From the NCBI GenBank assembly GCA_951406725.2, contig OX597827.1, positions 75,268,001 to 75,332,000 of the forward strand: 64,000 nucleotides of DNA. Reading direction: 5' to 3'. Of the stretch, positions 1,260 to 44,200 are shown one piece after another. The notes under the pieces are model-generated. The model had not been told where the DNA came from, did not search any database, and saw only the letters and a list, made by a program, of their open reading frames with translations. Position numbers and translations under genes: made by a program. The stretch comes from Octopus vulgaris (taxonomy: Eukaryota). Every line of letters begins with the position of its first letter. The first letter of the stretch is position 1.

Positions 1260-1475
1260 ACTCATAGATCATTAGCTCCTTCACGCATTTTTCTCTCTCC
1301 TTGTTTCTCTCCTTTTTTTTCTGTGTATCTTTCTGTCGAAGAGCATATGCTCGAAATGTAAAAGACTTGTTCTATTTCTATTCCTTGAGCACCATACTAA
1401 TACATTTGTTTGTTTGTACTCCACCTGCCTTCGTCTTTTGTTTATTTTCGTAAACCTTCCCGTTATATATATATA
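1260..1475 (+). mobile_element. Penelope-like short element (family P1) with degenerate minimal hammerhead at 1328-1365
   Basis: tcttt-CTGTCGA-A-GAGC-atat-GCTC-GAAA-TGTA-aaaga. The downstream taatacat...ccacctg...tttgt block is shared with the copies at 15822 and 16350. Ends in (TA)n. PLE assignment is inference. Confidence 0.6.
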
Positions 1476-1480
1476 ACTCT

Positions 1481-1799
1481 ATGCTGGTGGCACGTAAAAA
1501 GCACCATCCAAACATGGCCGATGCCAGTGCCGCCTTGACTGGCTTCCATGCTGGTGGCATGTAAAACCCACCAACCGATAGTGTCTGTTGCCAGCCTCCC
1601 CTGGCACTTGTGCCAGTAGCACATAAAAAGCACCCACTACACTCATGGAGTGCTTGGAGTTAGGAAGGGCATCCAGCTGTAGAAACACTGCCAGATCAGA
1701 CAGGAGCCTGGTGCAGCCTTCTGGCTTCCCAGACCCTGGTTGAACCGTCCAACCCATGCTAGCATGGAAAACGGACGTTAAACAATGATGATGATAATG

Positions 1800-1800
<1 letters not shown>
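1481..1800 (+). mobile_element. RTE-LINE 3'UTR fragment (family A)
   Basis: ggcacgtaaaaagcacc modules, ttaggaagggcatccagctgtagaaac, ccaacccatgctagcatgg and a (GAT)n tail. Confidence 0.8.
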
Positions 1801-1840
<40 letters not shown>

Positions 1841-2277
1841 TCACACACACATGTGTATATATATATATGTGAGTGCATATATATAAAAACACACATGGTG
1901 CTATCAGTGCTAAAACTATCTAAACTCAAAAGGGATTACCTCATCTTTAATTTTCTTCAGTTTACCACAGTCTCATGCATATACTCTTTACTAGAATTCC
2001 ATAGCTGTGTTCCAGTCAATGGTCTTTGTTTATGTAGAACACATGTCTATACCTGCACAATCTTCCTTGCACATCTCTAAGCATTCAATATTCTTGACAC
2101 AGGCTTTCTGCCAATATCTAACATCATTTGTTGGTATGTTTGATTTTCTTTGTTTGCTGCAGAACCCATGAAATATTATTTCTTTAAGAGTCTCCAAGAC
2201 TGGGGATAAGGAGTCATCATCGAAAGATAGATCTCAACTGTATGCTCGTAACTTAGTGAATTCTGCTCCCAGTGCTC

Positions 2278-2280
<3 letters not shown>

Positions 2281-2327
<47 letters not shown>

Positions 2328-2560
2328 TTAACATCCATTTTTGATTCTGGTGTGGGTTGGACAGTTTGAAAGAAGCTGGTCAGCTGAAGAGCTGCACCAG
2401 GCCCCAATTGTCAGTTTTGACAAGGTTTCTATATCTGGATGCCCCTCTTAATGGCAACCGCTTTACAAAGTGTATTGAGTTCTTTTTAAATAGCACTAGC
2501 ATGAAGGCTTTATAAGCAGCTCCAGCATGGCCGATTTTTTTATGTGGCACCAGCACAGGA
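2281..2560 (-). mobile_element. Degenerate family A (RTE 3' end) copy
   Basis: Long (CAT)n followed by diverged gggttggacagtttg...ctggatgccc. Confidence 0.65.
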
Positions 2561-3420
2561 TGGTAGCATTAATTCGTTTCATACCAACTTATATGAAACT
2601 GCCCTAGATTTTATGATTCAAATTCCCTGTTTTGAAATTACCCATCCATCTGTCTTCTTTGCCCACTATTCTTCTGAGGGCTGTGGGAATAGAGTGCCCA
2701 GGCACTTCCCCCATCGGGTCCCATCAAAAGCAATTGTCATTAGACTTTCTAGATGGCTTCCTAACCATGACCAACTGAGACCATTTCCTTTTTGGTCTAC
2801 CCCTAAGTATAGTGGTTCTCTCCAGCAACATTCTAATCACATAACTGTTATTTTATTAAATTCTTTATTATTTTGAAAACTAATGGAAGCAAAAGCAATG
2901 TATTTCAACAGAAAAACAATAATGAAAGGGCTAACCCCAGGTAATGGATTAAATCTACCTTCCAAGAACACAAAGAGTCAAAAGAAATCCTATTAAACAC
3001 TCAGTTCAATGTTTTCCCATTTATTCCAATTCCTTACCTTAGACTGGAAAGGATGAAAAATGAAGTTGACATGAGTGGGGTTTGAACCCAGAACACAGAG
3101 AGTCAGAGGAAATATCATATGGAATTTCTTTCTATGCGCTAATGACTCTATCAATTCCTTGCCTCTATAGATACTCTGTCTATTTTGAGATACTCGGTGA
3201 CTATTTCTGGATGTATGATGAATTTAGAAATAATCACTAGAATATTGAAATATGATAATGTAGATGTCATGGTGAAGGTGGCGGTGGTGGTGGTGGTGGT
3301 GGTGGTGATGGTCACTAGCTCAAGGTCAGCTCTAACCCTGATAACGAATGATTAAAAGTGTCACATCTGTGAATATCCTATCAATTATTCAGACATATTC
3401 TCTTTTTCTCTCTTTTCTCT

Positions 3421-3619
3421 TTTACTTGTTTCAGTCATTTGACTGCGGCCATGCTGGAGCACCACCTTTAATCGAGCAACTCGACCCCGGGACTTATTCT
3501 TTGTAAGCCCAGTACTTATTCTATCGGTCTCTTTTTTGCCGAACCGCTAAATGACGGGGACGTAAACACACCAGCATTGGTTGTCAAGCGATGCTAGGGG
3601 AACAAACACAGACACACAA

Positions 3620-3660
<41 letters not shown>

Positions 3661-3822
3661 ACAGGCTTCTTTCAGTTTCCGTCTACCAAATCCACTCACA
3701 AGGCATTGGTCGGCCCGGGGCTATAGCAGAAGACACTTGCCCAAGATGCCACGCAGTGGGACTGAACCCGGAACCATGTGGTTGGTTAGCAAGCTACTTA
3801 CCACACAGCCACTCCTGCGCCT
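3421..3822 (-). mobile_element. Full-length tRNA-derived SINE with CORE-like domain and internal microsatellite (family B)
   Basis: The minus strand begins aggcgcaggagTGGCTGTGTGG (A box)...GGTTCAGTCCC (B box-like), then gtggcatcttgggcaagtgtctt (CORE/MIR-like), an internal (TA)(TG) tract and a tail ending gaaacaagtaaa. Confidence 0.88.
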
Positions 3823-3843
3823 AGGATTACATTATACTAAGAT

Positions 3844-3918
<75 letters not shown>

Positions 3919-3989
3919 GGTTATGGCAGGTTCATAGAGTTGTCAAGTAGTGGTGGGGGAACAAAATGATACAGTATATATATACATAT

Positions 3990-4197
3990 ACAGGTGTGTG
4001 TCTGTGTTTGTTCCCCCTCCACTGCTTGACAACCAGAGTTGGTGTCTTTACATTCCCATAACTTAGCAGTTCAGTAAAAGGGATCGATAGAATAAGTGCC
4101 AGGCTTTAAAAAATAAGGACTGGCATTGATTCATTCGACTAAAACATTCTTCAAGGCAGTGCCCCAGCATGGCCACACTCTAACGACTGAAACAAGA
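3990..4197 (+). mobile_element. Family B SINE 3' half
   Basis: ctgcttgacaacc...gatagaataagt...ccagcatggcc...actgaaacaag. Confidence 0.75.
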
Positions 4198-4218
4198 TAT
4201 TACCTATGTTGTATTTGT

Positions 4219-4447
4219 TGCGAGCTGGCAGAAACGTTAGCACGCCAGGTGAAATGCTTAGCAGTATTTCGTCTGCCGTTACGTTCTGAGTTCAAATTCC
4301 GCCGAGGTCGACTTTGCCTTTCATCCTTTCGGAGTCGATAAATTAAGTAGCAGTTGCACACTGGGGTCGATGTAATCGACTTAATCCCTTTGTCTGTCCT
4401 TGTTTATCCCCTCTATGTTCAGCCCCTTGTGGGCAATAAAGAAATAA
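4219..4447 (+). mobile_element. tRNA-derived SINE family C
   Basis: gcgagctggcagaaacgttagc (A box-like), gagttcaaattcc (B box), then a central gtcgactttgcctttcatcctttcgg..gataaattaagta domain. This resembles the Meta-type SINE domain from recollection and is not verified. Confidence 0.85.
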
Positions 4448-4495
4448 CTTGTTGCTTAGGCTCTGGTCAACACTGATTCACCAGACCTCTAATTA

Positions 4496-5010
4496 TACTA
4501 GATTCAGGAATGATTTTTTATGCAAGAATTTATTCAAAATTAAAAACTATTCTTCAAGATAAAGGCCATCATTTTCCACGACCTTCTGCCTACAATCTGC
4601 AAGCTTTCAGATTTGGTCAAAGTACCAATCCTTTGGTTTTGAATTGAAAAATTCTTGACAGGTTTCTTCAACTTCTTCGAATGACTCAAATCAGCAACCT
4701 TTCATAAAATGCTGCTTTGATTGGAAGAGACCGTAGTCAGATGAAGCAACATCTGGACTATAGGCTGGATGCATCAGAACTTCCACACCGTCCAATTCTT
4801 CAATCTTGTTGCTGGTCTTTCTGACTGTATGTGGCTCTGCATTGTCTGGTTGAAACAAAGTGCGTTATTGACAAACAAGTCTTGGGTACTTTTCAACAGT
4901 GTGTCACCGTTGAACATAACATGAACTGAATAAACACACACACCACAAAAATATATTTTAAAAAAAGGATTATTTTAACACAGAGCACAAACTTTTTCCT
5001 CAGTCTAATA
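4496..5010 (-). mobile_element. Internally deleted mariner (Tc1/mariner) element
   Basis: Degenerate TIRs tactagattcaggaatgat (4496) and gcacaaactttttcctcagtctaata (to 5010), each ending in TA. They enclose a transposase C-terminal remnant. Confidence 0.75.
4547..4875 (-). pseudogene. Mariner transposase C-terminal catalytic remnant
   Basis: Manual translation: LFQPDNAEPHTVRKTSNKIEELDGVEVLMHPAYSPDVASSDYGLFQSKQHFMKGC*FESFEEVEETCQEFFNSKPKDWYFDQI*KLADCRQKVVENDGLYLEE*. It contains the DNA-x-PH and YSPDLAPSDY-like motifs with in-frame stops. Confidence 0.92.
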
Positions 5011-5444
5011 ATTATAATCAAAGACATTTTGTCTGTGACTGCCTTTTGGAGGTATGTTAAAGGTTTCCAGAATTGTTAGAATGCTGAGCATAATTGCTTC
5101 GTGGCATTTCATCCATTTTTATGCTTTTTGAGTTCAAACTTCACTGAGGTCAACTTAGCCTTTTGTCCTTTCAAAGTTGATAAAAGAGGTACCAGTTGCA
5201 CACTTGGGGTCAATGTGATCAACTTGCCCACTACCCCAAACTTTCTGGCCTTGTCTCAAAATTTGAAATCGTTATTTAGTACATTCTTTCACTGCTTAAG
5301 TAGGTAGGGTAAGAATTGAGCAAGATTTTGAATAATAATAAAGAAATGAATTTATTGTATACAGTACTCAGGTATACGACAAGTGTGCTGTCACTATCTT
5401 TGGTGGTTTGGACAACCATGTAGAGGATCCCTCTTATGATGCTA

Positions 5445-5655
5445 TTGTTGTTGTTGTTTAGCCCCAGAATAACATCAATCAGGCACATCTATAAATCAAA
5501 GACATTCCAGAAGTGACTAACATGTCTTTTTTTAGAGACATATCGAGGGTCACATAATCCAATATCACATTCCGTTATTTAACACAGTAAAGAATAATAT
5601 AAAGAAAATTTATCTGCTATTTCTAGCATGTCACTCATTCACTTAGATGACCATT
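5445..5655 (-). mobile_element. Old (CAA)n-tailed interspersed repeat (family F)
   Basis: tgttgttgtttagcccc...atcaaagacattccag...gctatttctagc. The family recurs throughout the window (e.g. 10635-10910+, 29450-29640, 30410-30555, 35345-35540, 37650-37830, 43420-43550, 51523-51755, 53460-53630, 55590-55725, 56245-56430, 61455-61580). Confidence 0.7.
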
Positions 5656-5684
5656 TGTTGGATCATCATTCTTTGTGTTTCTTC

Positions 5685-5843
5685 CACGAGTGTAGTGGGT
5701 GCTTTTTACGTGCTACCCGCACAGGAGCCAGGCGGAGCTGGCAAATGGCCATGAACGGATGGTGCTTTTACATGCCACCGGCACGGAGGCCAGTCGGGGC
5801 GGCGCTGGCAATGGCCACGAACGGATGGTGCTTTTTACGTGCT
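5685..5843 (-). mobile_element. Family A (RTE 3'UTR) internal fragment
   Basis: Three ggtgcttttta(c)gtgc modules. Confidence 0.7.
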
Positions 5844-6089
5844 TATAGGTAGATTAATTCAAAACCATTCGAGCATGTTATAGTTTTTAATTATGAAGTC
5901 TACTGACAGCTGATTAACACTTCAGTGCTGCCTGACACCCTCATTCAAGTATAACCTATTTCTCACACTCAAATGAACATATTACTTGAGTGTAAGCTGT
6001 TACTCAATCTTGCTTGAAACTTACTTGGAACTTCTGTCATACTCGACATGCGTTAAAACAATGTAGTCTACAGTATTTGGTATACACAA

Positions 6090-6220
6090 TAACATACATA
6101 TATACATACACACACATGCACACATACATACATACATGGACACATACATACATACATACACACATACATACACACATACATACATACGTACGTACGTACA
6201 TACATACATACATACAAACA

Positions 6221-6252
<32 letters not shown>

Positions 6253-6350
6253 CACACATACATACATACATACATGCATATACACACATACATGCATGCA
6301 CACATACATGCATACATACATATATACATACATACATGCATATACATACC
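6090..6350. repeat. (CATA)n/(CA)n microsatellite
   Basis: Direct reading. Confidence 0.95.
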
Positions 6351-6364
6351 ACCCACGCAATGTT

Positions 6365-7215
6365 CAACCACCACCATCACAACCACATAGTACCACTACA
6401 ACCACACTCACCACCACCACCACCACTACTACTACTACACATTCACAGTTGTCAAGGTTACCACCACCATCACCAACAACAACAACACCAACACCACTGT
6501 CACCTTTACAGCTATTACTACTATCACCTCTATAACGACGACCACTTCTACTCCACCACTGTCACCACAAATACCACCTCCCCCTTCAGAACCAATGCAA
6601 TCATCACCATCAGTCACCATCAGTCACCATCGCCATCAATCATCATCACCACCATCAACCACTAACCCCATCACAACAAACATCTCTAGGGCCACTTCTG
6701 CACCGTCGCTGTAACCATTATCAACACTACCACCTACACCACTGCAGCCACCATTACTGCCGCTACCACTGCCACTACCACCATCACTGTCAGAACCACT
6801 GCTGGCACCGCTACCATTTCTATTACTGTCATCACTATCACCAATATCACTATTACCACCACCACCACTATCATCACCACCATCACCACCACCTTCATCA
6901 TCACCACCACCACTATCACCACCACCACTATCACCACCACCTTCATCATCACCACCACCACTATCATCACCACCACCACCATCACCACCACCATCACCAC
7001 CACCTTCATCATCACCACCACCACTATCACCACCACCTTCATCATCACCACCACCACTATCATCACCACCACCACCATCACCACCACCATCACCACCACC
7101 ACTATCATCACCACCACCACCATCACCACCACCTTCATCATCACCACCACCACTATCACCACCACCACTGCCGCCGCCGCCGCCACCACCACCACCACTA
7201 TTACCGTTGCCACTG
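6365..7215. repeat. (CAC/CAT/TAC)n low-complexity tract with higher-order repeats at 6850-7200
   Basis: Recurring ctatcatcaccaccacca and ccttcatcatcaccacca units. It is the source of the Gly/Asp- and Val/Met-rich ORFs. Confidence 0.9.
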
Positions 7216-7354
7216 TTGTAAATGAACATGCTTTGACCGGTAAGTTAGTTTGGTATTTTATAACTGGAGTTAATTACCTTAAAGCAAGTAGGTCGGTGGG
7301 AGTGAAATCTATTGTTGCAACATTCTGAGTGATTCACAAGCTAAGGCTTGAGTG

Positions 7355-7780
7355 TACACACACACATACATGCATACATGCATACATACATACATACGTA
7401 CATACATACATACACATGTACATACATACATACACACGTACATACATACATACATACACACATACACACACACATAATACATACATACATACACACATAC
7501 ATACATGCACACATACATACATACATACATACATACATACATACATACATGCACACATACATACATGCATACACACTCATACACACACACATACATACGC
7601 ACACAGATAAATTGATTCATACATACATACATGCACTTTATATTATACATTCATACATTTTTACATGCATACATACATACTTATACACACATACATGCAC
7701 ACACACACACACATGCACACACACACATGCACACACACACATGCACACACACACACACACACATACATATGCATACATAC
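7355..7780. repeat. (CATA)n/(CA)n microsatellite
   Basis: Direct reading. Confidence 0.95.
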
Positions 7781-8189
7781 TCAGATAAATTGATACAAAC
7801 AAAGAAACAAACAAACAAGACAGTGAATTGGTAACATAGTTAGAAGATGGAATAGAATTCCTCATATTTGGTTTTGACTCTCTAAACTCAGATCAAATTT
7901 GCTTTTCCTCCTTCGAACTCTCTTTATTCTGAGCTCAAATCCCCTCCATGGCATTTTTGGGTGATAATCTTAATTCGTTGCTCTCATATCCTTCTATATG
8001 ATGGATACACAGATTTCACAAAGTGGAGATAGACTCAACCATCTTCCCACAACATACTTCAAATTACTCCACCAAACACACTACTCTTTCTAAAAGTTCA
8101 GCTAGTCCATTCTTCCAATCCCACAGGAATGTCAATGACTCTCACCATAGCAGTTGCCTTGCTTGGAAACCACTACTTGACCTCTTAAG

Positions 8190-8621
8190 CAATGCTGGAT
8201 TAACCATTAAGCAAAATAAGCACATGCTCAGGGCATCAAGGGAAAGAGGGGGAACACCACAGAAATGGTAAATGGTCTACGGCACAAAAGAAATCACTTT
8301 AAACCTGCTAAAATAATATTCAGGATGCCTTTATCTCTACTAAGTATAGATGTAGATGTGTTACCTAAGATTAATTCTGAGGATCTGATCAAAGACTTAG
8401 CAATTCAAAAAAGTAGGAGGAAACTTTTCAAATATAAATAAAGTGGAAGTAGACAAAAATAGACCATTATTTTCCCTCTCACTGTTTTGTTTCATTTTGA
8501 AACATAAAAATTTATTTAATGGTTTTTTATTGGTTATATTTTAAATTACATAATCTTTTATGAGGGCCCCAAAATATCTCTTAAGTCCTTAAAGCCTCAA
8601 TTGGGTCTTAATCGGGTCCTG
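8190..8621. mobile_element. hAT-superfamily MITE
   Basis: Imperfect TIRs caatgctggattaa / ttaatcgggtcctg, with a perfect 8-bp TSD ctcttaag at 8182-8189 and 8622-8629. Confidence 0.9.
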
Positions 8622-8698
8622 CTCTTAAGCGTCTTCAGTGGAGTCCACTATGGTGCAAGCACTCAAGCTATGTCTCTGATTTGACGATACCGCCCTCC

Positions 8699-8772
<74 letters not shown>

Positions 8773-9039
8773 TTCACCAGTATTGGAGGCCTTAATATAT
8801 ATATATTTAGATATCTAGATATAGATATAGATACAGATATTTTAATGTTTTGCTTGGGCATTGCGATGCTATTGATCTGCTGTTAGAACTCCATATATGA
8901 AGGGAACTATAAGGTGATACTCAAATGCTCAACTATGAATGCATTGCACCTTATAGCAGAAACAACTGTAAGCTAATGTAGTTCATAACATAATTGTTTA
9001 TTCCTTTGTCACCCCAATTGCTTATACATACATAAAATC

Positions 9040-9413
9040 AAAATCAAAATCGATCAACATCAATGGAAATTGTAGCTGTGATACCAGTGCCGATGGCACG
9101 TAAGAGAAACATCCGAACGTGGCCGTTGCCAGCGCTGCCCCGACCGGCCTCCGTGCCGGTGGCATGTAAAATACACCATCCAATTGTGGCCGTTGCCAGC
9201 CTCGTCTGGCACCTGTGCAGGTGACACGTAAAAAGCACCCACTACACTCACGGAGTGGTTGGTATTAGGAAGGGCATCCAGCCGTAGAAACATTGCCAGA
9301 TCAGACTGGGCCTGGCGCAGCCCTCTGGCTTCCCAGACCCCAGTTGAACCGTCCAACCCATGCTAGCATGGAAAACGGACGTTAAACGATGATGATGATG
9401 ATGATGATGATGA
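9040..9413 (+). mobile_element. RTE-LINE 3'UTR fragment (family A)
   Basis: Well-preserved copy with three internal modules and a (GAT)n tail. Confidence 0.82.
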
Positions 9414-9965
9414 TATATATACACACACACATACATACATACATACATTTATTTATGCGTATGTAAATATTGAACAATTAAATGAGTCCTAGACTAAAAT
9501 ATGTAGTGAGGATGGCCAGTGCTCCAGCATGGTTGCAGTCCAAAGGCTGATACTAGTAAGACTTAAAGTACATATGTTCATACACACACACACACACACA
9601 CACACAATAACGAACACATATTCCCTCAGTTACACCACCACAGCACAAGACAACTCCATCTACTGAAATAATCAATACCTGCCACATAGCAAAACAATTC
9701 AATGATCAATAACTATCAAGGTTATAGGCATCACATATTGATTTCATTGAAATCAATTATCCCCCATACTTCAATTCGCCAGGGCAGCTGTTACATGGCC
9801 ACAGAAGAGGGCAGCAGAAATTTCGTGTGCTGGTGGCAACGTGTTGTGTCTGTCGCAGTACCTGTGGTGGTAATGATGTCCCTAGGCTGTTGTAGTGGTG
9901 GTAGTGACTGTTGAGAGAGGACATAGTACTGTCTGTACATGATTATGGTTGTGTTGCTAATGAAC

Positions 9966-10139
9966 GGTGGTGGTGGTGTGGTTGTGGTGGTGGTGGTTGT
10001 GGTGGCGGTGGCAGCGGCAGCGGCGGCGGCAGCGGCAGCGGTGGCGGCGGAGGCGGCGGCGGCGGTGGCGGCGGCGGCGGTGGATGTAGTGGTGGTGGTG
10101 GTGGTGGTGGCGGTACTGCTGCTGGTGGTGCTGGTGGTA
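9966..10139. repeat. (GGT)n/(GGC)n trinucleotide tract
   Basis: Direct reading. It is the source of the poly-G, poly-P and poly-A ORFs. Confidence 0.95.
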
Positions 10140-10634
10140 TCAACGAAATCGTTCAGGGCTATCAGGGCACGTTGCTGTTGTTATGGAACAGCCCCTGTCA
10201 GCTGTGCTCAAATGAACCCATTCCAAAGAGCAGACCAATCCAATCCTTGATGCAGGAGACAATCCAGGAAATACAACCGCATTGGCTAGTAAGCTGATCT
10301 TCTGCAAACCTCAAATCAGACCCACAATGAAGGGTCACTCCGACAACTGGGGTAGTACTGCTCCCATGTATAGGACAGCACTGCTTCCACACACCCAAAC
10401 ATACTAGACCACACATCTAAATTAGGGCCATCCAACTAATAAGCAAAAGTCCCTCCCCCTAACGGTCTACAATCTCCGGAGCCCTGATATACTCTTTTCT
10501 CTTTCTGCTTATCCTCCTACTTCTATGACCACCTCTACTCCTTGGAACTAGATAATTGAATTATGGTTCCATCTCTTCCCACACCTCATCTCTTCAGATA
10601 CAACCATCTCTCCTCCTCTCCTACTGTAAGCCAT

Positions 10635-10912: not shown

Positions 10913-10969
10913 AGCAGTCCCAACTATAAAGGTTGAATGAAAAGTTTGTAGGTTGACCAAAACACTCAC

Positions 10970-11502: not shown

Positions 11503-11551
<49 letters not shown>

Positions 11552-12021: not shown

Positions 12022-12079
<58 letters not shown>

Positions 12080-12092
12080 GTATATGTATACA

Positions 12093-14176: not shown

Positions 14177-14516
14177 ATGTCCTCGCGTTGTTGTGTTTTT
14201 TTGTGCTTTCTTGTTTGGATTAACTATATATATATATATATACATATATATACAGAGAGAGAGAGAGAGAGAGAAACAGAGAATTAGCACCTCCTTTTTT
14301 ATCAAACTAGATACTTGTGTTTGTATATATAGATATGTGCATGTAAGGATGTGTGTATTTGTGTGTTTGCATATTAATGTATGCATTGATATGCGAGTAT
14401 TTATAAATCGTTTGTAATTTTATTCACATCCAAAACGTGAACAACCAATCTTCCCTCTGACCTCTTATGGTTATATCTATGTTGAAGAATGGGAATGTCT
14501 ATATGTGCTCATATAT

Positions 14517-15699: not shown

Positions 15700-15960
15700 G
15701 AGCACGCATTCTCATTGTTTGCCCCTTCTTCTTAGCTCTCCTGTGTGACCCTTCTGTCCAGCATTCGCCAAAATAGATCGCTAGCCACTACACATTCTTT
15801 ATTTTCTCTCTTTGTTGCTTTCTGTGGAAGAGCGTAGGCTCGAAACGTTAAACACTTTTTCACTTCCCGAGCATTAAACTAGTACATCTGTTTGTTGTCT
15901 ACACCACCTGTCTTTGTTTTTTGTGAATTCTCCACCTTTATGTGTGTATATAAATATATA
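15700..15960 (+). mobile_element. Family P1 element with hammerhead-like motif at 15819-15852
   Basis: ttt-CTGTGGA-A-GAGC-gtag-GCTC-GAAA-CGTT-aaa, then the shared 3' block, ending in (TG)(TA)n. Confidence 0.6.
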
Positions 15961-16262: not shown

Positions 16263-16319
16263 ATATATATATATATATGAGTCACCATGCTTGGCTATTA
16301 AATCCAGAAGTTTTTTACT

Positions 16320-16470
16320 CTCTCTCTGTTTATTTTCTCTTATTCCTTTCTGTTGAAGAGCATAAGCTCGAAACATAAAAGACTTTATCACTTTCCTGAG
16401 CTTCAAAGTAATACACCTGCTTGTTGCTCATACACCTATCTTTGTCATGTTTTTCTGTAAATTTCAACTA
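16320..16470 (+). mobile_element. Family P1 element with hammerhead-like motif at 16346-16381
   Basis: cttt-CTGTTGA-A-GAGC-ataa-GCTC-GAAA-CATA-aaag, then the shared 3' block. Confidence 0.55.
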
Positions 16471-18439: not shown

Positions 18440-19170
18440 CAGCTTCAGTTACTATAGTAACCTCTAGATTTGCTTTGATGCAATATTGACTCTTAACCTG
18501 CTTTGGTGCTATAGCGACCTCTGGAGCTGGTTTGGTGCTACATTGACCTCTGGAGCTGGTTTGGTGCTATGTTGACCTCTGGAGCTGGTTTGGTGCTGTA
18601 TTGACCTCTGGAGCTGGTTTGGTGCTATGTTGACCTCTGGAGCTGGTTTGGAGCTATATTGACCTCTGGAGCTGGTTTGGTGCAATATTGACCTCTGGAG
18701 CTGGTTTGGTGCTATATTGACCTCTGGAGCTGGTTTGGTGCTATATTGACCTCTGGAGCTGGTTTGGTGCTATATTGACCTCTGGAGCTGGTTTGGTGCT
18801 GTATTGACCTCTGGAGCTGGTTTGGTGCTATATTGACCTCTGGAGCTGGTTTGGTGCTATATTGATCTGAAGAGCATGTTTGGTGCTATATCTGACCTTT
18901 TAGTTTATTTGGTACCATGCTTGACCACTAAACATGCATAGGTATCATACCTGACCACTAAACTCATTCTGATGTCATGTTTGACCTTCAAGTTATTTTG
19001 GTGTAATATCTGACCTATGGGCTTGTTTGATAGCACCATTGACCTCAGGACTTATTTTGGTAATATATGATACTATTTTTGACTCCTTGATTGGGTTTGG
19101 TACTATGAATTATCTGCTAGTATGGTTTTATGGTATATTTGACCATTTTGTTAGTTTAGTACCATGTCAG
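18440..19170. repeat. 29-bp minisatellite (ttgacctctggagctggtttggtgctata) with diverged ~30-bp flanking units
   Basis: Near-perfect units start at 18543, 18572, 18601 and continue to 18833. Degenerate tgacc-anchored units follow at 18891, 18921, 18951, 18981 and 19011. Confidence 0.95.
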
Positions 19171-34446: not shown

Positions 34447-34978
34447 GAAGGCACGTGGCCTGATGGTTAGGTGGCGAGCTGGCAGAAGCGTTAGCACGCC
34501 GGGCGTTCCAAGTTCAAATTCCACCGAGGTCGACTTTGCCTTTCATCCTCTCGGGGTCGATAAATTAAGTACCAGTTACTCCCTGGGGTCGATGTAATCG
34601 ACTTAATCCCTTTGTCTGTCCTTGCTTGTCCCCTCTGTGTTTAGCCCCTTGTGGGTAGTAAAGAAATAGGTTAGGGGCATGCGGATCACAATCATATGGT
34701 TGTGAGATCAATTCCTGGCCACACATTGTGTCCTTGAGCAAGACACTTTATTTCACATTGCTCCAGTCCACTCAGCTGGCAAAAATGAGTAGTACCTGTA
34801 ATTCAAAGGGGCCAGCCTTGTCACATTCTGTGTCATGCTAAATCTCTTTGTGAACTGTATTAAGGGTACGCATATCTGTGGGGTACTCAGCCACTTACAC
34901 ATTTTTTTCACAAACTGGTTATTCCATTGATCGGATCAATTGGAACTCTCAGCCTCATAACTGATGGACTGCTAGAGT
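34447..34978 (+). mobile_element. Family E SINE interrupted by a family C SINE (34470-34668)
   Basis: The host A box tggcctgatggttagg is split, and ggtta(gg) is duplicated at 34465 and 34669. Confidence 0.85.
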
Positions 34979-35736
34979 CTTTCCTCCACATTGAACATCG
35001 GCCCTCTGAAATTCCCTCCTGCCCCATGTTTTTCCTGCAGTCATAAAAAATTTAGCAATTCAAGTGAAACATTCATCTCACTGGTCTTGTTTTGTGGGTC
35101 TAGAAAGGCCAAAGCATTGCCCCTTCTTCCCAGCCCAAATCATTAAGAAAGGGAAAGTGATATAGCACTTGCATTAACTCAGTATATGACAGGTATTTCA
35201 TTGATTCTGAAATGCCAACTCCAGCTGGATTTGATCTCTAAGCATAGAAGACAACCAAGCTTACTACTCTATGTTGATTTATTGTCTCAAAATCTGTAGT
35301 AAGTGGTGATGGTCGTAGTAGTAGTGGTAGTGGTGGTCTGCTGTCACTGTTTAGCCCCGTGTCAGCCTTGAGTCAGCAGACCCATGAGCAAAAGGGTTCA
35401 GCCGTAGCCATTCCATCTTTTTTCACATCTAGGATTATGTTGCCTGATCTATCTTACATTATTTTAAGACGGTAGGGTTTGATTTGAAGGTATTTGACTG
35501 TTATTTCTAACGAGTTGAGTGATTGCACAGCAGTTCCTTCCTTGCCTCATAGTCTGTGCTCTTCAGTTGGTGGACCATCAAACTGTTTATTGTAGTGATG
35601 ATGACTGTCGGTACTATAAAAGACATCTGATGCTCCACCAACCGAAGTGTACAGGTTGTGAGCCAGTGAAGGAGCTTCTGTGCAATCACTCAACTTGCTA
35701 GAAATAACAATATAGTAGTGTTGCTAGCTGTCAGTG

Positions 35737-36030
35737 TGAAGGCGCATGGCTCAGTGGTTAGAGCATCAGGCTCACAATGATGAGACAGTGGGTTCAATCC
35801 CTGGACTGGGCTGTGTGTTGTGTTCTTGAGCAAGGCGCTTCATTTTCATCTTGCTCCAGTTCACTGAGCTGTAGAAATGAGTTACAACATCACTGGATAA
35901 CATCAGTGGCATGGGGCAGAGAGGCTGGTATGCTGGTCTTCCATAAACAGCTGTGTCTAGACTTGTGCTTCAGAGGGTAACTTTCTAGGTGCAATCCCAT
36001 GATCATTCATGACCGAAGGGGGTCTTTACG
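35737..36030 (+). mobile_element. SINE family E' (E head with an alternative tail)
   Basis: The head and CORE-like region are as in family E. The tail ...ctttctaggtgcaatccc...gaccgaagggggtcttta is shared only with 38238. Confidence 0.8.
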
Positions 36031-37399
36031 CTGATGGCTGTCAGTGGCAGGGGTGGTTGAAATAACACCAATTGGGGAGACTACCAGCCATAGGATTTAC
36101 CAGGAAACCCTAGCTCTATAAAGTAAAAAATAGAAAATAAACTTGTTAAGCTGGGGGTTGGGGGTTGGCCGAATCATCATTAGAACATCACAGACCAAAT
36201 GCTTTGCAGTTTTTATTTATGATGCTTCATATTCTGAGTTCAAATCCCACTGGGTTCAACTTTGCCTTTCAACATTGCATGGTTGATAAGAGAAAGTACC
36301 AAATATTGGGGTTGCTATTATCAACTTCTCCTTCCCACTCAAATGTGTGACCTTATACCTATATTAGAAATTACATAAGTGCCAGGAATAATTTGTGTGT
36401 ATTTGTAACTGAATTGTTTAATACACACATCAGTAAAAACCGCCTCGTGTATTTGGTGAGTTCTGTGACATTTGGTGTTACTGTAATATTTTTAGCCCGA
36501 GACTTGGCTTTAACAGCAGTTCTCATGAGGTGGGGACCACTTATGGAGTCACCTGTGAGGAATGGAAAGAGGGAGGACCAAGTACCCATGTTTAATAAAA
36601 TTAAGATGGTTTTAAACGTTTTAAACTTGTCCAACACTGGCAAAGAAAGACATTCAGATGCAAAAACTTCCATCACCCCATTTATAAAAAACTAGTGGGG
36701 TGGGGAACGAATTTTCACTAATACTTGATAGTGGGGGTGGCTGGTATTTTGTCAGTTTGAAAACTACTGGGCCAGGCTGGACTATCAGGCTAGGATAACC
36801 CATACTAGTGATGGTGGTGGTGGCGGCGGTGGTGGTGGTTGCGGTGACAGTGACTGTGTCACTGGGCGTTGTAGCAGTAATAATAGTAATAATAATTATA
36901 AGGCGGAAGGAGGCAGGTTGTGATATCAGCAGCAGTAATTGGTTGTTGTTGTTGTTGTTGTTGTTGTTGTTAGTCATAGTAGTTGTAGCAGTCTATCACA
37001 GACTGACAATAGAAGGCTACCCTGAAGTGAACTAGTTTCACTGTAGATATTATACAGTTTTATTGATTCTTGCAAGGAAGCTTCTCTCTCCACACCCACA
37101 ATACTCAACCCACAGCATTTATTTATATAAAGCTCCCTTGTTTAGTTTAGGGATTAGTCATTCTCATTGACCCCTGACACCAAACTTGGAACTCAGCTCC
37201 CCTACTGCTCCTCCTCCCCCAGAAGCCTTTAATCTCTTATCTGCTATCTGAAGATCTTGAATGTTGCTGTTCACTTTCATACTCCCTTGCAGGATTACTG
37301 GTATTAGTTTTTTCTCTGCTGGACAAATAGGATGTCAAGTTGACCTGAGCAGAATTTGAATTGGCATCTCCCATTTGTGTGTGTGTGTGTGTTTTCTTT

Positions 37400-37595
37400 T
37401 ATTCTTTTACTTGTTTCAGTCATCTGACTGCCGCCATGCTGGAGCACCACCTTGAGGGGTTTTAGTTGAACAAATCAACACTAGGACTTATTTCTAGTAC
37501 TTATTCTATTGTTCTCTTTTGCCAAACCACTAAGTTATGGGGACATAAACACACAATACCAGCTGTCATGCAGTGAGGGGACGTGGGGACAAACA
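37400..37595 (-). mobile_element. Family B SINE 3' half
   Basis: tttacttgtttcagtc...ccatgctggagcacc. Confidence 0.75.
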
Positions 37596-37922
37596 CATTC
37601 ACACTTGTGCTAAATCTCCTTTACTCTTTTCAAATTCTTGTTCCAATCCAGATTAGCCCTTATCGAGCAAACCTATAGTCAAAGACATTCCCTCCTTAGT
37701 CATTTTGTCTTTGTGTGTGTATATTTAGGGTTATATCATCAAGTGTGTCCCTTTTTTAAACATGATTAGGTGCGTTTGGCAAATTTGCTGCTATTTCTAA
37801 CAGGTCGAGTAGCCTGATAGTGCTCTGGCTCAGAATAAGATATATCGCATTTGCTATATGAATAGGCAACCCTTTCACTTTTCTCATTGTATATCTGAAA
37901 TATAACAAACTATTTTATTTAA

Positions 37923-38114
37923 TCCTTCAGCATTTAAACTGGCCGTATCCAGCCCAAATATTCAAACAGCTAGATTTGTCCTCTCACACCCATCCTACAA
38001 TGTCATTCTAAAAATAAACATTTACATCATCAAAATCTTGAAACTATGAGGTGATTCAAAACAATGTGAATAAACAAGTTCTACATGTGGCTAAGAAAAC
38101 TGAATTCTAAAGGA
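37923..38114. mobile_element. piggyBac-type MITE, degenerate and inverted relative to 48000
   Basis: TTAA at both ends, with ends tccttcagc / ctaaagga. Confidence 0.65.
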
Positions 38115-38237
38115 TTAAATCAAGAAGTGTGTGTGTCTGTGTGTGTGATTATCATTGTTCTAACGTCCACTTTTCTATGACTGCATGTGTGAAACAAAGT
38201 TTATTGCAGCGGATTTTCTAACCCTCAACCATTTTCG

Positions 38238-38582
38238 TGAAGGTGCATGGCTCAGTAAATAGAGCATCAGGCTCATGATCGTGAGGTAGTGAGTTCAATC
38301 TCCGAACCAGGCTGTGTGTTTTGTTCTTGAGCAAGACACTTTATTTCACGTTGCCTCAGTTCACTCATCTGTAGAAATGATTTGCAATGTCACTGGTGCC
38401 AAACTGTATCGGCCCCTTTGCTTTTCCCTTGGATAACATATTAGTGGTGTGTAGAGGGGAAGCTGGTATGCATGGGCGATTGCTGGTCTTCCATAAACGA
38501 CCTTGCCCGCACTTGTGCCTCGGAGGGAAACTTTCTAGGTGCAATCCCAAGGTCATTCATGACCGAAAGGGGGTCTTTACCT
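38238..38582 (+). mobile_element. SINE family E'
   Basis: Matches 35737-36030. Confidence 0.82.
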
Positions 38583-38614
38583 TTTTATATATACATACAC
38601 TTTTTTGTTTTTAT

Positions 38615-38822
38615 TCTTTTTACTTGTTTCAGTCAGTTGACTTCAGCCATGCTGGAGCACCACCTTAAAGGGTGTTAGTCAAAGAAATCGACCCCAGGAC
38701 TGATTCTTTGTAAGCCTAATACTTATTCTATCGGTCTCTTTTGCTGAACTACTAAGTTATGGCGACATAAACACACCAGCATCAGTTGCCAAGCGATGGC
38801 GGAGGAACAAAAAAACACACAC

Positions 38823-38860
<38 letters not shown>

Positions 38861-39020
38861 GACAGGCTTCTTCCAGTTTCTGTCTACTAAATCCATTCAC
38901 AAGGCTTTAGTTGGGTTGAGGTTACAGTAGAAGACACTTGCCTAAGGTGTCTTGCAATGGGACTGAACCTGGAACCATGTGGTTGGGAAGCAAGCTTCTT
39001 GCCACACAGCTATGCCTGTA
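38615..39020 (-). mobile_element. Family B SINE
   Basis: Full-length match to 3421-3822 with CpG decay. Confidence 0.85.
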
Positions 39021-39074
39021 CCTATGTATATATATTGTAAACAAATTTATAAACACTGTGTATATCAGTATTCT

Positions 39075-39303
39075 ACAGAAAATAAAGGAATTTGCAAATA
39101 CGGGAGGCTGTGAAGACAGCTTAGAAATTTGGGTAAATACCCTTTCAAAGACAGAAAAAAGTGGGCCAGCAAGCCTCTGCAGGTACTTGAACCCTGCACC
39201 TCAGCCTTACTGGCTGCTTTTTTCTATCTTCAAAAGGGTATTTACCCAATTTTCTAAGCTGTCTTCACAGCCTCCTGTATTCACGAATTCCTTTATTTTC
39301 TGT
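39075..39303. repeat. Long inverted repeat (~100-bp arms, short loop)
   Basis: acagaaaataaaggaatt...ggaggctgtgaagacagcttagaaa pairs with tttctaagctgtcttcacagcctcc...aattcctttattttctgt. The inner tgcagg/cctgca closes the loop. Confidence 0.95.
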
Positions 39304-39331
39304 CTTCTTCTTTTGAACTTTCCTATGTCTC

Positions 39332-39370
39332 CTGTTTCCGAAGAAGAGCTTTGCTCGAAACGTAAAACAG
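39332..39370 (+). ncRNA. Minimal type-I hammerhead ribozyme-like motif (Penelope-like)
   Basis: Stem I ctgttt/aaacag (6 bp), core CCGAAGA plus an extra A, stem II GAGC-ttt-GCTC, GAAA, palindromic ACGT stem III and a GUA triplet at 39362-39364. U4 is C. Activity is untested. Confidence 0.6.
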
Positions 39371-39471
39371 CCGCTCTTTCTTTCCTTCTCTGAACATCTT
39401 ATTGATACTTTATATGTATTACATCCTCATGTTGTTGTTTTTTCTTGTCTTTTTTTCTGTTTTTTTTTTAA

Positions 39472-39693
39472 CCCTTTCGCTACTGTATTTATTTTGAGAT
39501 GCTCTGTTTTTCATTCAGTTAATTTTAAATATAACAAAGAATTTAGTCAAATAACTTAGTTATCATTCAGCTAGTGTTAGGAACATAAATTGTGACTAAG
39601 GTTTGGTGGAAGATTTTAATTCAAAACTTATGAAAACAAGATATTTGTACTACAGAGCCAGAGGCGGTTTTGACCAGGTTTGTATCAAAAGGG
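39472..39693. mobile_element. piggyBac-type MITE (second family)
   Basis: TTAA|cccttt...aaaggg|TTAA, inserted in the tail of the hammerhead element. A probable degenerate relative lies at ~2570-2935. Confidence 0.85.
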
Positions 39694-39698
39694 TTAAT

Positions 39699-39745
<47 letters not shown>

Positions 39746-40093
39746 CTCTCAGTTTCTATGTTGAGGATCCAGTTGTTCATTCAACTGAATTCCTTGTTGT
39801 CCATTGAATTAGAATAGAAGTCGCCAGGCAGTCTGCTGTTGTATGCTCAGTGTAATCCTCAGGCAGAATCAGTATGATACAGCATGTGACAAGGCTGTAC
39901 CTTTCAATTGCAGGTACGATCCATCCAACCAAGAGACTTCTATACATTTTCCTTCTACCTAATTTCACTCCCAAGATATGGGTCAAATTAAGTCTGTTAA
40001 AAATGATATTGACCCAAGATGCTTTGCAGTGCATTTGAACCCAGGATGTTGTAGCTGCAAAATACTCTTCTTAATCATTCCATCATTCTACAG

Positions 40094-40130
<37 letters not shown>

Positions 40131-40460
40131 CATTGTTGTTAGTCGTCAGTTTAAATAACCCCACCTGCTCCTTGCTTGCTTTTAGCGGAGTTCTTTTTGT
40201 CACTCTGTCACATGCTTTCAGACCCAGACTTTCTCCTCATTTGCTCTCCACCCACCTATATTAAACAGCAGATGTTCAGGCTGGGTATCAATGACATCAG
40301 TCTCACCAGTCAAGGACAAGAGATAGAGGAGAGTTTGCAACAGTCTAGAGCATTACCCCCCACCTCTTCCTTCCTCCTCTTGCTCTAACTTATATAAAAG
40401 AGAAAGAATAGGATTTATTTGCCTCTCTATTTATTTTCTTATTGTCCTCAATTTTTCCAG

Positions 40461-40545
40461 ACCTCCGCTTTCTATCATAGAATCTGTCAATCTCGTGGAT
40501 CTGCAAACTCTGCAAAATACCTGACAAAATTCTCTGTGGGATTTC
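40461..40545 (+). other. Candidate small exon
   Basis: Strong acceptor ttattttcttattgtcctcaatttttccag| and donor c|gtaagg. One frame is open (TSAFYHRICQSRGSANSAKYLTKFSVGF). Confidence 0.3.
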
Positions 40546-41260
40546 GTAAGGGTTTTTTACTTTGAGTAGAAATTCTTCCACGTTCAACTGCTTTCTTTTC
40601 GTCATGTCCTGCCACTGATTAAATCGGTCGAGTGGAAAGTTACAGTATTTTCAATAATTCATTTCATACACTTAGATATTTAATTTATTGATTGTTCTTC
40701 ACTGTTTGGTCAGCAGAAACAGAACTGGGCAGAGCATATCAACATTGGTTAGTAGTCAAAGCAGCACTATACCAATTTCTGTATTTTGCTAGTTCGCTCT
40801 TCTAACAATGATGGAATGAAGCAAATGGGTGCAGCTGTTCGGATGCTGATGATTTGGCACAGCTGACTAAACTTTCAGTCTGTTTTGCCAACAGTACACT
40901 TTGGTGCTGGAGGCAAAGACACACACACACACACACACATGCACAGAAATATACACATACAGATAGAGTGAGAGAGACATTACAGTTTATTAATAGAACA
41001 CAATCAGTATAAACACTTTTCCTCTCCTCATACATGTAAAGAGAAATATGGCCACATGCATAAACAGGGAGAGAGAACAAGAGAAGCATTAAAACGTCTG
41101 CTGTCAAAGAAGTCAGCATCGAAGCAATAATGCCAGACAGCTCTGCCAAAACTTCTTATATGCCATCAACTATGTTGGTAACTATGTTGCCACCACAAGC
41201 TATCTCCAGCTTCCTCAGGGTACAGATTTTTTCCTTACTCCTGGGGTAGATAACATTCTA

Positions 41261-42075
41261 CATCATCTTAATGTCTGCTTTCCATGTTGGCATGGGTTGG
41301 ACGGTTTGATAGGAGCTGGCAAGGCTGGAGAGCTGCAACAGGCTCCTATTGTCTGTTTCAGCATGGTTTCTACAGCTGGATGCCCTTCCTAACACCTGCC
41401 CCTTTACAGAGCCTACTGGGTCCTTTTACATAGCACCAGCACACTTGTTTGTCATGTGGCATCAACACAAGTGCTCGTTAAGTGGCACCAGCACAGGTGC
41501 TTTTTACCTGGCACCAGTATAATATTGTATGCTTATTCATCTGTACTTAGATATATGGTGAATGAGTTTTCTCAGATCAATGCCTCAACACTTCTTGCAC
41601 TTCTTCATCATCTGTTTCATAAGGTCCAGCCACTTAAGATCAGCATTCACCACTTCTACCATGTCTTGCTCAATCTTCCTCTTAGATCCCTTCTTCTTGT
41701 AGTGCTTAGTCTTCCTCCATACATTTCACATCTTCATAGCAGCACAGTCTTCTCTGATGTACACTACACCTGATTCCTCTTATCCCAATTTTCCTTTCAA
41801 CTCATTTGTGCTGTCTTACACTGTACATCAAGCAAAATATGTCAGTCTCACTTCTTTCCAACCATTATATATCCTCCACATTTAGTGTCATGTTTCACTA
41901 TCATGCAACTTTGTGCTTCCCACGTAAGCATCATACAATTTTGCCTTTCACTCAGTGAGCCAGTCCCTTTGATGCTAATAGAGTTAATAGCTCTCTGAAC
42001 TAAACCACTCTCATATTCTATCTATGGTGTTTTCAGAACACCCAGTACTGTTGAATAGGTCACCTAGGTACAGAC
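41261..42075 (-). mobile_element. Decayed RTE LINE 3' portion (RT C-terminal region, UTR and tail)
   Basis: Minus-strand remnants YLGDL, FRELLTLLASKGL, VKGKLYDAYV, LHDSET and RGRLSKTW..EVVNADLK, followed by the family A UTR and a short (CAT) tail. Confidence 0.82.
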
Positions 42076-42331
42076 ATTGAGTACCATTTTTAGAGATCTT
42101 TCCAGGTATTTGAAAAAATTCATTTTATGGCTGCCCTTACTGCTAACTACTGCTGTGCATCCGCTATTTACAAATTCCTTCTTTTCCCTTGGCTGTCATT
42201 ATGTCATTTCAAACTTTGGGCACCCATCGTTCACATTCGGTACACAGTATAGAACCTCTACAAATAGCTTTTCTGCATGTTAAGCAATGCCCATATCTCA
42301 GATGGCAGCAGAGTTATGTATCCTTTTCTGG

Positions 42332-42365
<34 letters not shown>

Positions 42366-42700
42366 CAATTATATATATATAATAGAAAATAGTGTACATT
42401 TAAACACAATGAGAAATTACCTATAACAGGCAATTTCTACACGCTAGGGGACACACACACACACACATATAAATATATGTACACACTCACACACAGATTA
42501 ATGGTTATCTCATTGATGGCAACTGGAACTACATTTCCCATTTTACCCAATTTTTAAAACTTTCTTTTATTGTCTTTGTATTTTACTTTATTTCTTGAAG
42601 TTTTGATAGGTTTGGTGTGAGTGTGTATATATATATACATACACATATCCTTCTATTTTTCGTGCAGAAGTGCAGAATGGAACCATATATATATATATGT

Positions 42701-43004
42701 GGAGGCACAATGGCCTAGTGGTTAGGGCAGCGGACTCGCGGTCGTAGGATCGTGGTTTCGATTCCCAGACCGGGCGTTGTGAGTGTTTATTGAGCGAAAA
42801 CACCTAAAGCTCCAGGAGGCTCCGGCAGGGGGTGGTGGCGATCCCTGCTGTACTCTTTTGCCACAACTTCCTCTCTCTCTCTTTCTTCTGTTGGCCTGCT
42901 CGCTTAGCCAGCGGGGTGGCGTCATTTGAAGGCTAAAACAATGCGAAGCGCATTGTGACCAGCGATGTGTAACAACATCTGATGGCCTGGTCAGTCATGG
43001 TGAT
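42701..43004 (+). mobile_element. tRNA-derived SINE family D
   Basis: TGGCCTAGTGG (A box) and GTTTCGATTCC (B box). The tail ends catctgatggcctggtc..tggtgat, and the element sits in (TA)nTG. Confidence 0.88.
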
Positions 43005-43669
43005 ATATATATGTGTGTGTATGTATGTTCTCATTATGAGTTGAGAAAGACGAAGAGAGGAGGTTGTGGTTCAGAAACTATTTCCTGTCAGCAATGTTTA
43101 ACCAGACTAATATAGGATTGTCTAACTCACTGGTTTATGGTCTGTTCATTGACAACTGAGCCACTTGTGATGGTGGTGGAGGTGCTGTTTGCAGGTTCAA
43201 ACTATGGCAGGAAGGGGGCACCAAGTGCAAGCTATGTGGGTAGGTCTCTCTAGAGAGAAGAGGAAGTGGAGGAGGAGGAGAACAATGACAGGGGGGAGTT
43301 GCACTGCTCATGACTTCTAGTGACCTTGTTGGCTCAAAATAGGGGCGTGGTTGAGTTAGATAGAGACATGTTTGTCTGTGAAACTTGTATATGCACACAT
43401 ATGTTCATTTGTATTTGTTATTTAACCCTAGGGAGGCCTATAATCACATGATTATCCAATATGTTCTTTCCTTATTTGAGATAGTAGGACCCGATTTAAG
43501 GAAGATATGACTGCTATTTCTAACAGATTGCTTGGCCCACATAAAGGCTTCTAGTTTGTGGCTTCTGTTTGTATTTTATTTATCCATGTGCATTTAGTAC
43601 AACAATCTGTGTAAGTGTATGTGTGTGTGTAAGTGTGTGTGTGTGTGTGATCCAGATTCTGGATCACAT

Positions 43670-43815
43670 CAGTGTGATGAACAAGAATGTGAAACTCTGA
43701 GTAACAGTTTTTTGTGATATTTTTACAGCTTTAATGATAAAACATATTACTCTACCTCCAGTATTCAAGTACTATTTTTTCCTTACCAGATTTCACATTT
43801 ATCTGCTTACTCCTT
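43670..43815 (+). mobile_element. Penelope-like short element family P2 with hammerhead-like motif (43670-43707)
   Basis: GTGATGA-ACA-agaa-TGT-GAAA-CTCTGAGT-A-acag. It runs into (TA)n and is homologous to the reverse complement of 44080-44200. Confidence 0.55.
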
Positions 43816-43819
43816 CCTG

Positions 43820-43857
43820 TATATATTCATATATATATATATATATATATACTCACA

Positions 43858-43889
<32 letters not shown>

Positions 43890-43895
43890 CTCACA

Positions 43896-43964
<69 letters not shown>

Positions 43965-43969
43965 TCACA

Positions 43970-44026
<57 letters not shown>

Positions 44027-44060
44027 TCACATTCATATATATATATATATATATACTCAC
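43820..44060. repeat. (TA)n with periodic ctcacattc interruptions
   Basis: Direct reading; higher-order unit. Confidence 0.95.
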
Positions 44061-44074
44061 ATGCAAATTAGCAC

Positions 44075-44200
44075 ATAAATTCAAAGCAAGGTGGAGGAAA
44101 AATAGTACTGCAATACCTAAGATAGAGTAATATAGAGTTATTAAAACTGCAAAATTCTCACAAAACTTCTACTCAGAGTTTCACGTTCCCATTCACCAGA
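44075..44200 (-). mobile_element. Family P2 element with hammerhead-like motif (44199-44170)
   Basis: The minus strand reads CTGGTGA-ATG-ggaa-CGT-GAAA-CTCTGAGT-A, then the same body as 43700-43790. Confidence 0.55.

Follow-up and report, generated by a model that had tools for sequence, protein, structure and literature searches.

One-letter core changes in the hammerhead motifs of high-copy Penelope-like element 3' ends in Octopus vulgaris

Penelope-like elements (PLEs) of animals are known to carry minimal hammerhead ribozymes in their end repeats, the pseudo-long terminal repeats (pLTRs), where dimeric motifs of low activity have been described (Cervera and de la Pena 2014, PMC4209133). 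Hammerheads also accompany elements of the Hydra clade (Craig et al. 2021, PMC8557442) and the Poseidon element PAc of the green anole (Frangieh et al. 2024, PMC11167929), and further examples are found among natural core variants (Perreault et al. 2011, PMC3088659) and in metazoan non-LTR retrozymes (Cervera and de la Pena 2020, PMC7229834); what we cite from these and other papers refers to the available parts of them. Here, we examined 64,000 nucleotides of Octopus vulgaris DNA (contig OX597827.1, positions 75,268,001 to 75,332,000 of the forward strand), a microsatellite-rich animal with a genome of 2.8 Gb. In this stretch, referred to as the window and numbered from its first letter, an earlier note made from the letters alone had described six hammerhead motifs. 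The six are almost certainly short 3'-end copies of three high-copy PLE families with a hammerhead-bearing end repeat, and whole families carry one changed core letter: A6U in P1a, and U4C in P2 and most of P1b/c (hammerhead numbering; the core letters quoted are positions 3-9). The motif is a variant and not a canonical minimal type I hammerhead.

Compared with the metazoan PLE motifs of PMC4209133, the octopus motifs have the same type I layout with a short stem I, a G10.1-C11.1 pair, a U-rich 5' flank, an extra nucleotide between A9 and stem II (in P1) and a loopless palindromic ACGU stem III, and they likewise occur as thousands of single truncated copies and as twin motifs flanking full-length elements. 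The core differs: the 56 representative motifs in Fig. S3 of that paper are CUGANGA or UUGANAA, with no C4 or U6 and no cephalopod among them, whereas A6U and U4C are family-majority states here. P2 shares its layout, stem I (ctgt/acag) and stem III (actc-N-gagt) with Hydra-2_aMil and Hydra-1/2_aJap, and its C-terminal endonuclease (EN), CxCX5C linker and (TA)n targets with the Hydra clade in general (PMC8557442), whereas the Hydra and Repbase rows in File S2 of that paper have a ctga core and P2 has ccga. Hydra-1_Obim, an octopus element, has its own hammerhead unlike that of P2, which makes P2 another family; by eye, the Hydra-type open reading frames (ORFs) in the present genome resemble Hydra-1_Obim. 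The motif sets of PMC4209133 and PMC8557442 were built with descriptors that fix positions 4 and 6. PAc has a pLTR hammerhead and AT-rich targets as well, but belongs to another PLE clade, and protein-assisted cleavage has been demonstrated for it and is predicted here (PMC11167929). The natural variants of PMC3088659 include U4C in a viroid and a change at position 6, A6C, in a phage, both slower; they are single RNAs with outer tertiary contacts, in contrast with minimal motifs in more than 10,000 copies, and A6U is not named in the available part of that paper. Retrozymes also bear a type I hammerhead in a short repeat of animal genomes, but they are tandem non-coding units of 150-450 bp with canonical hammerheads (PMC7229834), whereas the six copies here are single pLTR ends of coding elements.

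The identity of the copies was established by walking upstream from long P1a copies, as the earlier note had proposed, and reverse transcriptase (RT) and GIY-YIG reading frames were reached on the same strand. P1a was linked to such ORFs at four loci (L129, L329, L330 and L332; tblastn E 1e-37 to 1e-150). L329 is a full-length element in the order pLTR-ORF-pLTR (G000:C5, minus strand, C3 at 3801077 and 3796693), with an ORF matching the homologs P0001 and P0002 at tblastn E 1e-116 to 1e-119 and twin CUGUCGA hammerheads, one per pLTR, spaced 4,384 nt apart; its ORF-to-pLTR order is repeated in L330, L332 and L129. P1b-type motifs were linked to ORFs at L294, L235, L243 and L251, with RT, EN and pLTR together in L294, and they lie 0.7-1.5 kb past the EN end in 6 of 25 EN-end loci, none being found within the 1.5 kb examined in the other 19. 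P2 motifs lie downstream of RT in L290 and L292, and L290 also has a C-terminal EN. Overall, a single ORF of RT and C-terminal GIY-YIG stands upstream of a same-strand pLTR in L329, L330, L332 and L129 (P1a), L294 (P1b type) and L290 (P2). The GIY-YIG Pfam matches within the elements are weak and under the cut-off (E 0.0015-0.01), while P0001 passes Pfam GIY-YIG and P0002 passes RVT_1. The earlier note was right to tie minimal type I hammerheads with a palindromic stem III to PLEs, but the sequences that it took for non-autonomous ribozyme retroelements in their own right are 3' pLTRs belonging to RT and GIY-YIG elements.

Linker and EN motifs suggest the clades. The P1 ORF of L329 has a CX4CxxC linker (CSRPRCRTC) and a CCHH-type EN motif (CSLC..H..H), a CX2-5CxxC linker and CCHH EN being marks of Neptune/Nematis (PMC8557442); from these motifs and by-eye likeness to Neptune rows, P1 appears to be Neptune-like. 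The P2 ORF of L290 has a CxCX5C linker (CKCNDQSYC), which is a Hydra-clade mark (PMC8557442), together with a C-terminal EN and (TA)n targets, and P2 appears to be Hydra-like. The P2 copies examined end before the RWK and DKT motifs; L298 has both, and 86 aa of it align with L290 at 57% identity. L298 (G000:C1 near 102.35 Mb) is a Hydra-clade ORF in two long frames (473 and 243 aa) inside the (TA)n tail of a P1a copy.

To describe the copies genome-wide, we used a sample of 1,000,000 bases, made up of 100 evenly spaced 10-kb stretches on 18 large contigs. The 3' ends lie at a fixed distance of about 100 nt beyond the predicted cut (100-110 nt in P1a, P1c and P2) and are mostly followed by (TA)n. 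The 5' ends are staggered: the majority lie 45-130 nt upstream of the predicted cut, a few copies are much longer, and few P1a and P1c copies stop before the hammerhead. Candidate causes of the 45-130-nt cluster are a stall of reverse transcription, TA-like microhomology or short templates. A partial tandem (the twin pLTRs of L329) and inverted pairs occur among P2 and P1 loci, head-to-head pairs being common. Fixed 3' ends, staggered 5' ends, (TA)n targets and inverted pairs together correspond to the anatomy reported for truncated PLE copies.

The core changes, which the earlier note had overlooked, are states of whole families and not noise of single copies. Letters were counted in the first 100 listed matches of exact-pattern searches, by eye for P1a. 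The P1a pattern, with positions 6 and 7 left free, had 14,197 exact matches and none in the reversed control; position 6 was U in 96 of the 100, A in 2, C in 1 and G in 1, and all four letters were common at N7. U6 was also found in 20 of 21 P1a copies in the 1-Mb sample. For P2 (402 exact matches, 0 in the reversed control), position 4 was C in 83, U in 13, A in 2 and G in 2. Across 43 P2 copies, C4-to-T and G5-to-A occurred symmetrically (11 each), as CpG decay from a CCG master predicts, so that C4 is the master state. The P1b/c pattern, with positions 4 and 6 both left free, had 10,119 exact matches, mostly P1c, and none in the reversed control; position 4 was C in 65, U in 33 and A in 2, A6 was kept in 98, and C4 combined with U6 in none of the 100. 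In P1c, other letters of the sequence change together with U4, and G5-to-A was seen in only 1 of 19, so that a subfamily with the canonical core stands beside the C4 one; the sampled P1c copies were eight canonical U4 and eight of the U4C subfamily (e.g., L188, L146 and L166). In P1b proper, C4 was present in 19 of 26 copies, at loci chosen for their similarity to the window copy.

The altered core is conserved across subfamilies. We took 34 P1a copies from 237 of 340 sequences chosen without P1a queries, anchored them on the motif with up to 5 mismatches, and called a column variable when a non-CpG minor letter reached at least 15%. None of the 29 structurally constrained columns was variable, compared with 24 of 89 flank columns (Fisher p=0.0009), and the only variable one of the seven free columns was N7. 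When one RNA run and three contig runs with four organism labels were aligned to L012, strong variation was confined to N7 and H17 (A/U, some C); at a 4% threshold, A gave no row at position 6 in these four data sets, nor did G at H17. In stem I, a compensatory swap separates the families, with C-G in 67 of 79 P1a copies and G-C in 22 of 26 P1b copies. The covariation of stem I described earlier is therefore real, but amounts to one C-G/G-C swap between P1a and P1b/c; the differing stem II of P1 and P2, described there as staying paired, is not covariation, P1 and P2 being of different PLE clades. Within P2, covariation was not significant (stem I.1 C-G vs U-A, p=0.07; stem II.3, p=0.52).

Six such families were counted by homology. 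Per sampled Mb there were 24 copies of P1a, 4 of P1b, 19 of P1c, 1 of P1d, 9 of P2 and 20 of P4, which extrapolates to about 200,000 copies genome-wide. Three family searches gave 2,102, 2,426 and 2,890 first-look candidates for dispersed repeats, with 40 scored in each. A descriptor of paired stems I-III, GAAA and the UH site with at most one core mismatch matched 32 times in the 1-Mb sample, compared with 1, 1 and 2 times in three dinucleotide shuffles, and three of the six window motifs passed it (1333, 15822 and 39338). The window had been called unusually dense. Counting the three families of the six motifs, 6 copies were observed against 2.4 expected (P=0.03, for a window picked after the fact); counting all six families, 7 against 4.9 (P=0.23). 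The window is at most mildly enriched, with a density near the genome average. P4 is a further minimal hammerhead repeat with a 6-bp stem II and a canonical CUGA core in 8 of 15 copies (e.g., L154, L182 and L298). A link of P4 to the Hydra-type ORF in L298 was considered and is not proven, because a P1a fragment sits between them.

In the window itself, all six motifs are present where the earlier note had placed them, within pLTR copies of 140-220 nt. They fall into three families, P1a with three copies, P1b with one and P2 with two, where two had been named. The P1a copy at 1264..1472 (+) ends in (TA)n and matches the L329 5' pLTR at 93.8% over 209 nt; its hammerhead at 1328-1365 (core CUGUCGA, A6U, from 1333; predicted cut after 1360) has a stem III decayed to AUGU. 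The P1a copy at 15722..15940 (+), recovered by family search and as a descriptor match, matches L012 at 88% over 244 nt; its hammerhead at 15819-15852 (core CUGUGGA from 15822, predicted cut after 15849) has intact stems II and III and a stem I of 3 bp. The third P1a copy, at 16277..16470 (+), belongs to a divergent subfamily (80% to L219 over 204 nt) and ends in (CA)n; its hammerhead at 16346-16381, with core CUGUUGA from 16350 and a predicted cut after 16377, has a broken stem III palindrome (ACAU). The P1b copy at 39303..39472 (+; 85% to L072 over 171 nt) has a hammerhead at 39332-39370 with core CCGAAGA (U4C) from 39338, a 6-bp stem I and an intact ACGU stem III; its predicted cut after 39364 had been placed correctly. 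The two P2 copies lie tail to tail. The one at 43656..43815 (+) has a hammerhead at 43670-43707 with core GUGAUGA, in which G at position 3 (43674) removes the C3-G8 pair, an intact stem III (ACUC-U-GAGU) and a predicted cut after 43703. The other, at 44070..44213 (-), has a hammerhead at 44199-44170 with core CUGGUGA from 44199 (A6G, specific to this copy), a mismatched stem I and a predicted cut after 44170. Between their 3' ends, at 43820..44055, is a (TA)n-rich microsatellite, the usual PLE target. In addition, a 47-nt P1c 3' tip at 14179..14225 (+; 95.7% to the L188 seed), absent from the earlier note, ends short of the hammerhead.

Paired stems I and II, GAAA, a palindromic stem III and the UH site are family-majority states, and all are intact in one of the six copies. 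This is the motif at 39332, the best preserved and the sole copy that keeps every feature of its family; the other five carry private damage on top of the family state, including G3 at 43674 and G6 at 44196. The CUGANGA-like core that had been reported is found in none of the six. A palindromic stem III holds for four, CpG decay having removed it at 1328 and 16346; a closing stem I is damaged at 15819 and, by one mismatch each, in both P2 copies; and terminal TA-type repeats are present as (TA)n in four, one having (CA)n and one neither. As stated earlier, the copies have no recognizable ORF: no PLE ORF was confirmed in the window by tblastn (best E 0.045), and seven ORFs from it had no Pfam match above cut-off. 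No hammerhead appeared among the 150 of 283 Rfam window matches listed, which were microsatellite-driven miRNA matches, and Rfam at gathering score gave no match in five loci. Taken by themselves, the six copies of the window are unremarkable repeat remnants, and they are probably inert.

As for the function of the altered hammerhead, we consider it fairly probable that the window copies are truncated PLE 3' ends whose hammerhead, changed by one letter, works slowly, in two copies and with protein assistance in full-length elements. Transcripts through tandem pLTRs would bring two hammerheads together via the palindromic stem III, and the RT-EN protein would help both to fold, as in the anole PLE. 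Cleavage would be rare and most RNA would be copied uncut, in keeping with genomic copies that continue across the cut site. Aborted reverse transcription would then leave short, 5'-truncated 3' ends such as those in the window, where a lone copy would have no partner in cis. Whereas the identity of the copies is observed, dimer formation, protein help and cleavage are steps that we infer from related elements. In two-copy folding, the L329 5' motif and 39332 form the expected dimer (stem I and ACGU). A natural U4C has lowered activity and still supports viroid infection, and a natural A6C is slow but active, cleaving at <0.1 per minute (PMC3088659). The hammerhead of the anole PLE needs the protein of that element for cleavage, and uncut RNA is the main template there (PMC11167929). 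By analogy, the A6U and U4C families likely cut slowly or only with their own protein, and we lean slightly towards residual cleavage in them. A more tentative reading, which we think doubtful, is that A6U and U4C are selected, tuned-down cores, two PLE clades having independently slowed the hammerhead so that it would cut only when RT-EN holds two copies and would spare the 3' end for copying.

Several observations weigh against slow, assisted cleavage. None of 85 copies (77 sampled and 8 in the window) starts within 5 nt of the predicted cut, the 5' pLTR of L329 reaches upstream of it, and 5' ends, instead of being evenly spread, are concentrated 45-130 nt upstream of the cut. The expected dimer was obtained only for the best-preserved motifs, other motifs preferring other pairings. 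Hammerheads with one altered letter in the CUGA turn had low activity in a mutational scan (PMC9901934). In the constraint test, 5 of the 24 variable flank columns lie in the ragged last 8, leaving 19 of 81 without them, and the copies were motif-anchored. The earlier note had proposed a look for matching 5' ends or circles in RNA; three raw RNA runs gave 2,441-3,536 reads each at 85% likeness, on both strands, with no end pile-up, which is a weak test in unstranded, fragmented libraries, and with no back-joint at the cut among the joints shown, in a library type unsuited to circular RNA. Many copies contribute to these reads, which may stem from a related species and are uninformative on the six window loci.

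The strongest rival is that the hammerhead has lost all or nearly all of its catalysis and persists for its structure, serving for instance as an RT-EN binding or positioning signal about 100 nt away from where reverse transcription starts; we regard it as rather unlikely. It would account for the lack of cut-derived ends in RNA reads and in the 85 genomic copies, for the distance of about 100-110 nt between predicted cut and 3' end in P1a, P1c and P2, and for the most abundant intact forms bearing changes known to slow hammerheads. Moreover, hammerhead mutants of the anole PLE still insert in vitro with no effect of the mutation, and RNA-seq of that element has no ends at the cut (PMC11167929). 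However, variation in the octopus families tracks catalytic tolerance: N7 takes four letters and H17 takes A, U or C, while G8, G12 and A15.1-U16.1 are fixed. U4C and A6U do not occur together among the first 100 listed P1b/c matches, and sister subfamilies keep the canonical core (the 33 U4 matches there).

Another alternative is that the short copies are non-autonomous ribozyme retroelements of their own, mobilized in trans by PLE proteins and either retrozyme-like or mini-elements made of a pLTR. A length of just 150-230 nt is typical of the sampled copies, and their 5' ends are clustered, so that short templates are possible for some, and ORF remains are rare (3 of the 100 sampled stretches). 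We nevertheless find this improbable: homology is continuous from the pLTR into the ORFs, the copy at 1328 is 94% identical to the pLTR of an autonomous element (L329), the 5' ends lie at many different positions, and no tandem monomer arrays occur at these window sites, whereas in animals retrozymes form tandem repeats whose hammerheads are canonical (PMC7229834). A third possibility, that the altered cores reflect decay of single copies or chance resemblance, as private damage in five of the six window copies and the lack of a hammerhead among the Rfam matches listed might suggest, is very improbable given the excess of descriptor matches over shuffles, the prevalence of U6 in listed and sampled copies and its conservation in three other DNA data sets; decay as the source of A6U and U4C is refuted and applies only to private changes such as those at 43674 and 44196.

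Directly 5' of the P1b copy, at 39075-39303, is a 229-nt hairpin with arms about 83% complementary, of which no second copy was found in 1.74 Mb of sequence compared; it may be a local fold-back duplication made on insertion. A seventh hammerhead-like motif, missed before, lies at 56657-56687 (-), with a canonical CUGAUGA core, a 4-bp stem II and an ACAUGU palindrome. It has about 10 genome copies, alike over only about 40 nt, with variable N7, unalignable nearby flanks and no evident stem I, and is possibly an old family of which only the motif is still recognizable. The window also contains a minisatellite array of 29-nt units at 18452-19166 (about 15 copies in its first part) and several abundant SINE-like families with 5-15 copies each (e.g., 1482-1800, 4224-4446, 44700-44922 and 51266-51488).

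Minimal PLE hammerheads are already known, including that of an octopus Hydra element, and the new part is the family-wide core change. The suggestion that the motifs are uncatalogued in this lineage is not supported, a Hydra-clade PLE with an annotated hammerhead being listed for an octopus in the supplement of PMC8557442. Literature searches for A6U or U4C motifs in PLEs returned nothing relevant beyond PMC3088659; the work of Lunse, Weinberg and Breaker (2017) on small variants of PLE hammerheads may already list them, and the available main text of a recent octopus repeat annotation (PMC13282606) has no mention of ribozymes. The role of hammerheads in PLEs is still debated, and the most successful families here bear letters that slow hammerheads in vitro while the rest of the core is fixed. 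Natural matched pairs (U4/C4 within P1c and A6/U6 within the P1 group) set cleavage against fold alone in the spreading of these elements. If the cores are indeed tuned down, PLE ribozymes would be undercounted by every CUGANGA-based search, and these families and their canonical sister subfamilies in the same genome would form a natural test of what the PLE hammerhead is for.

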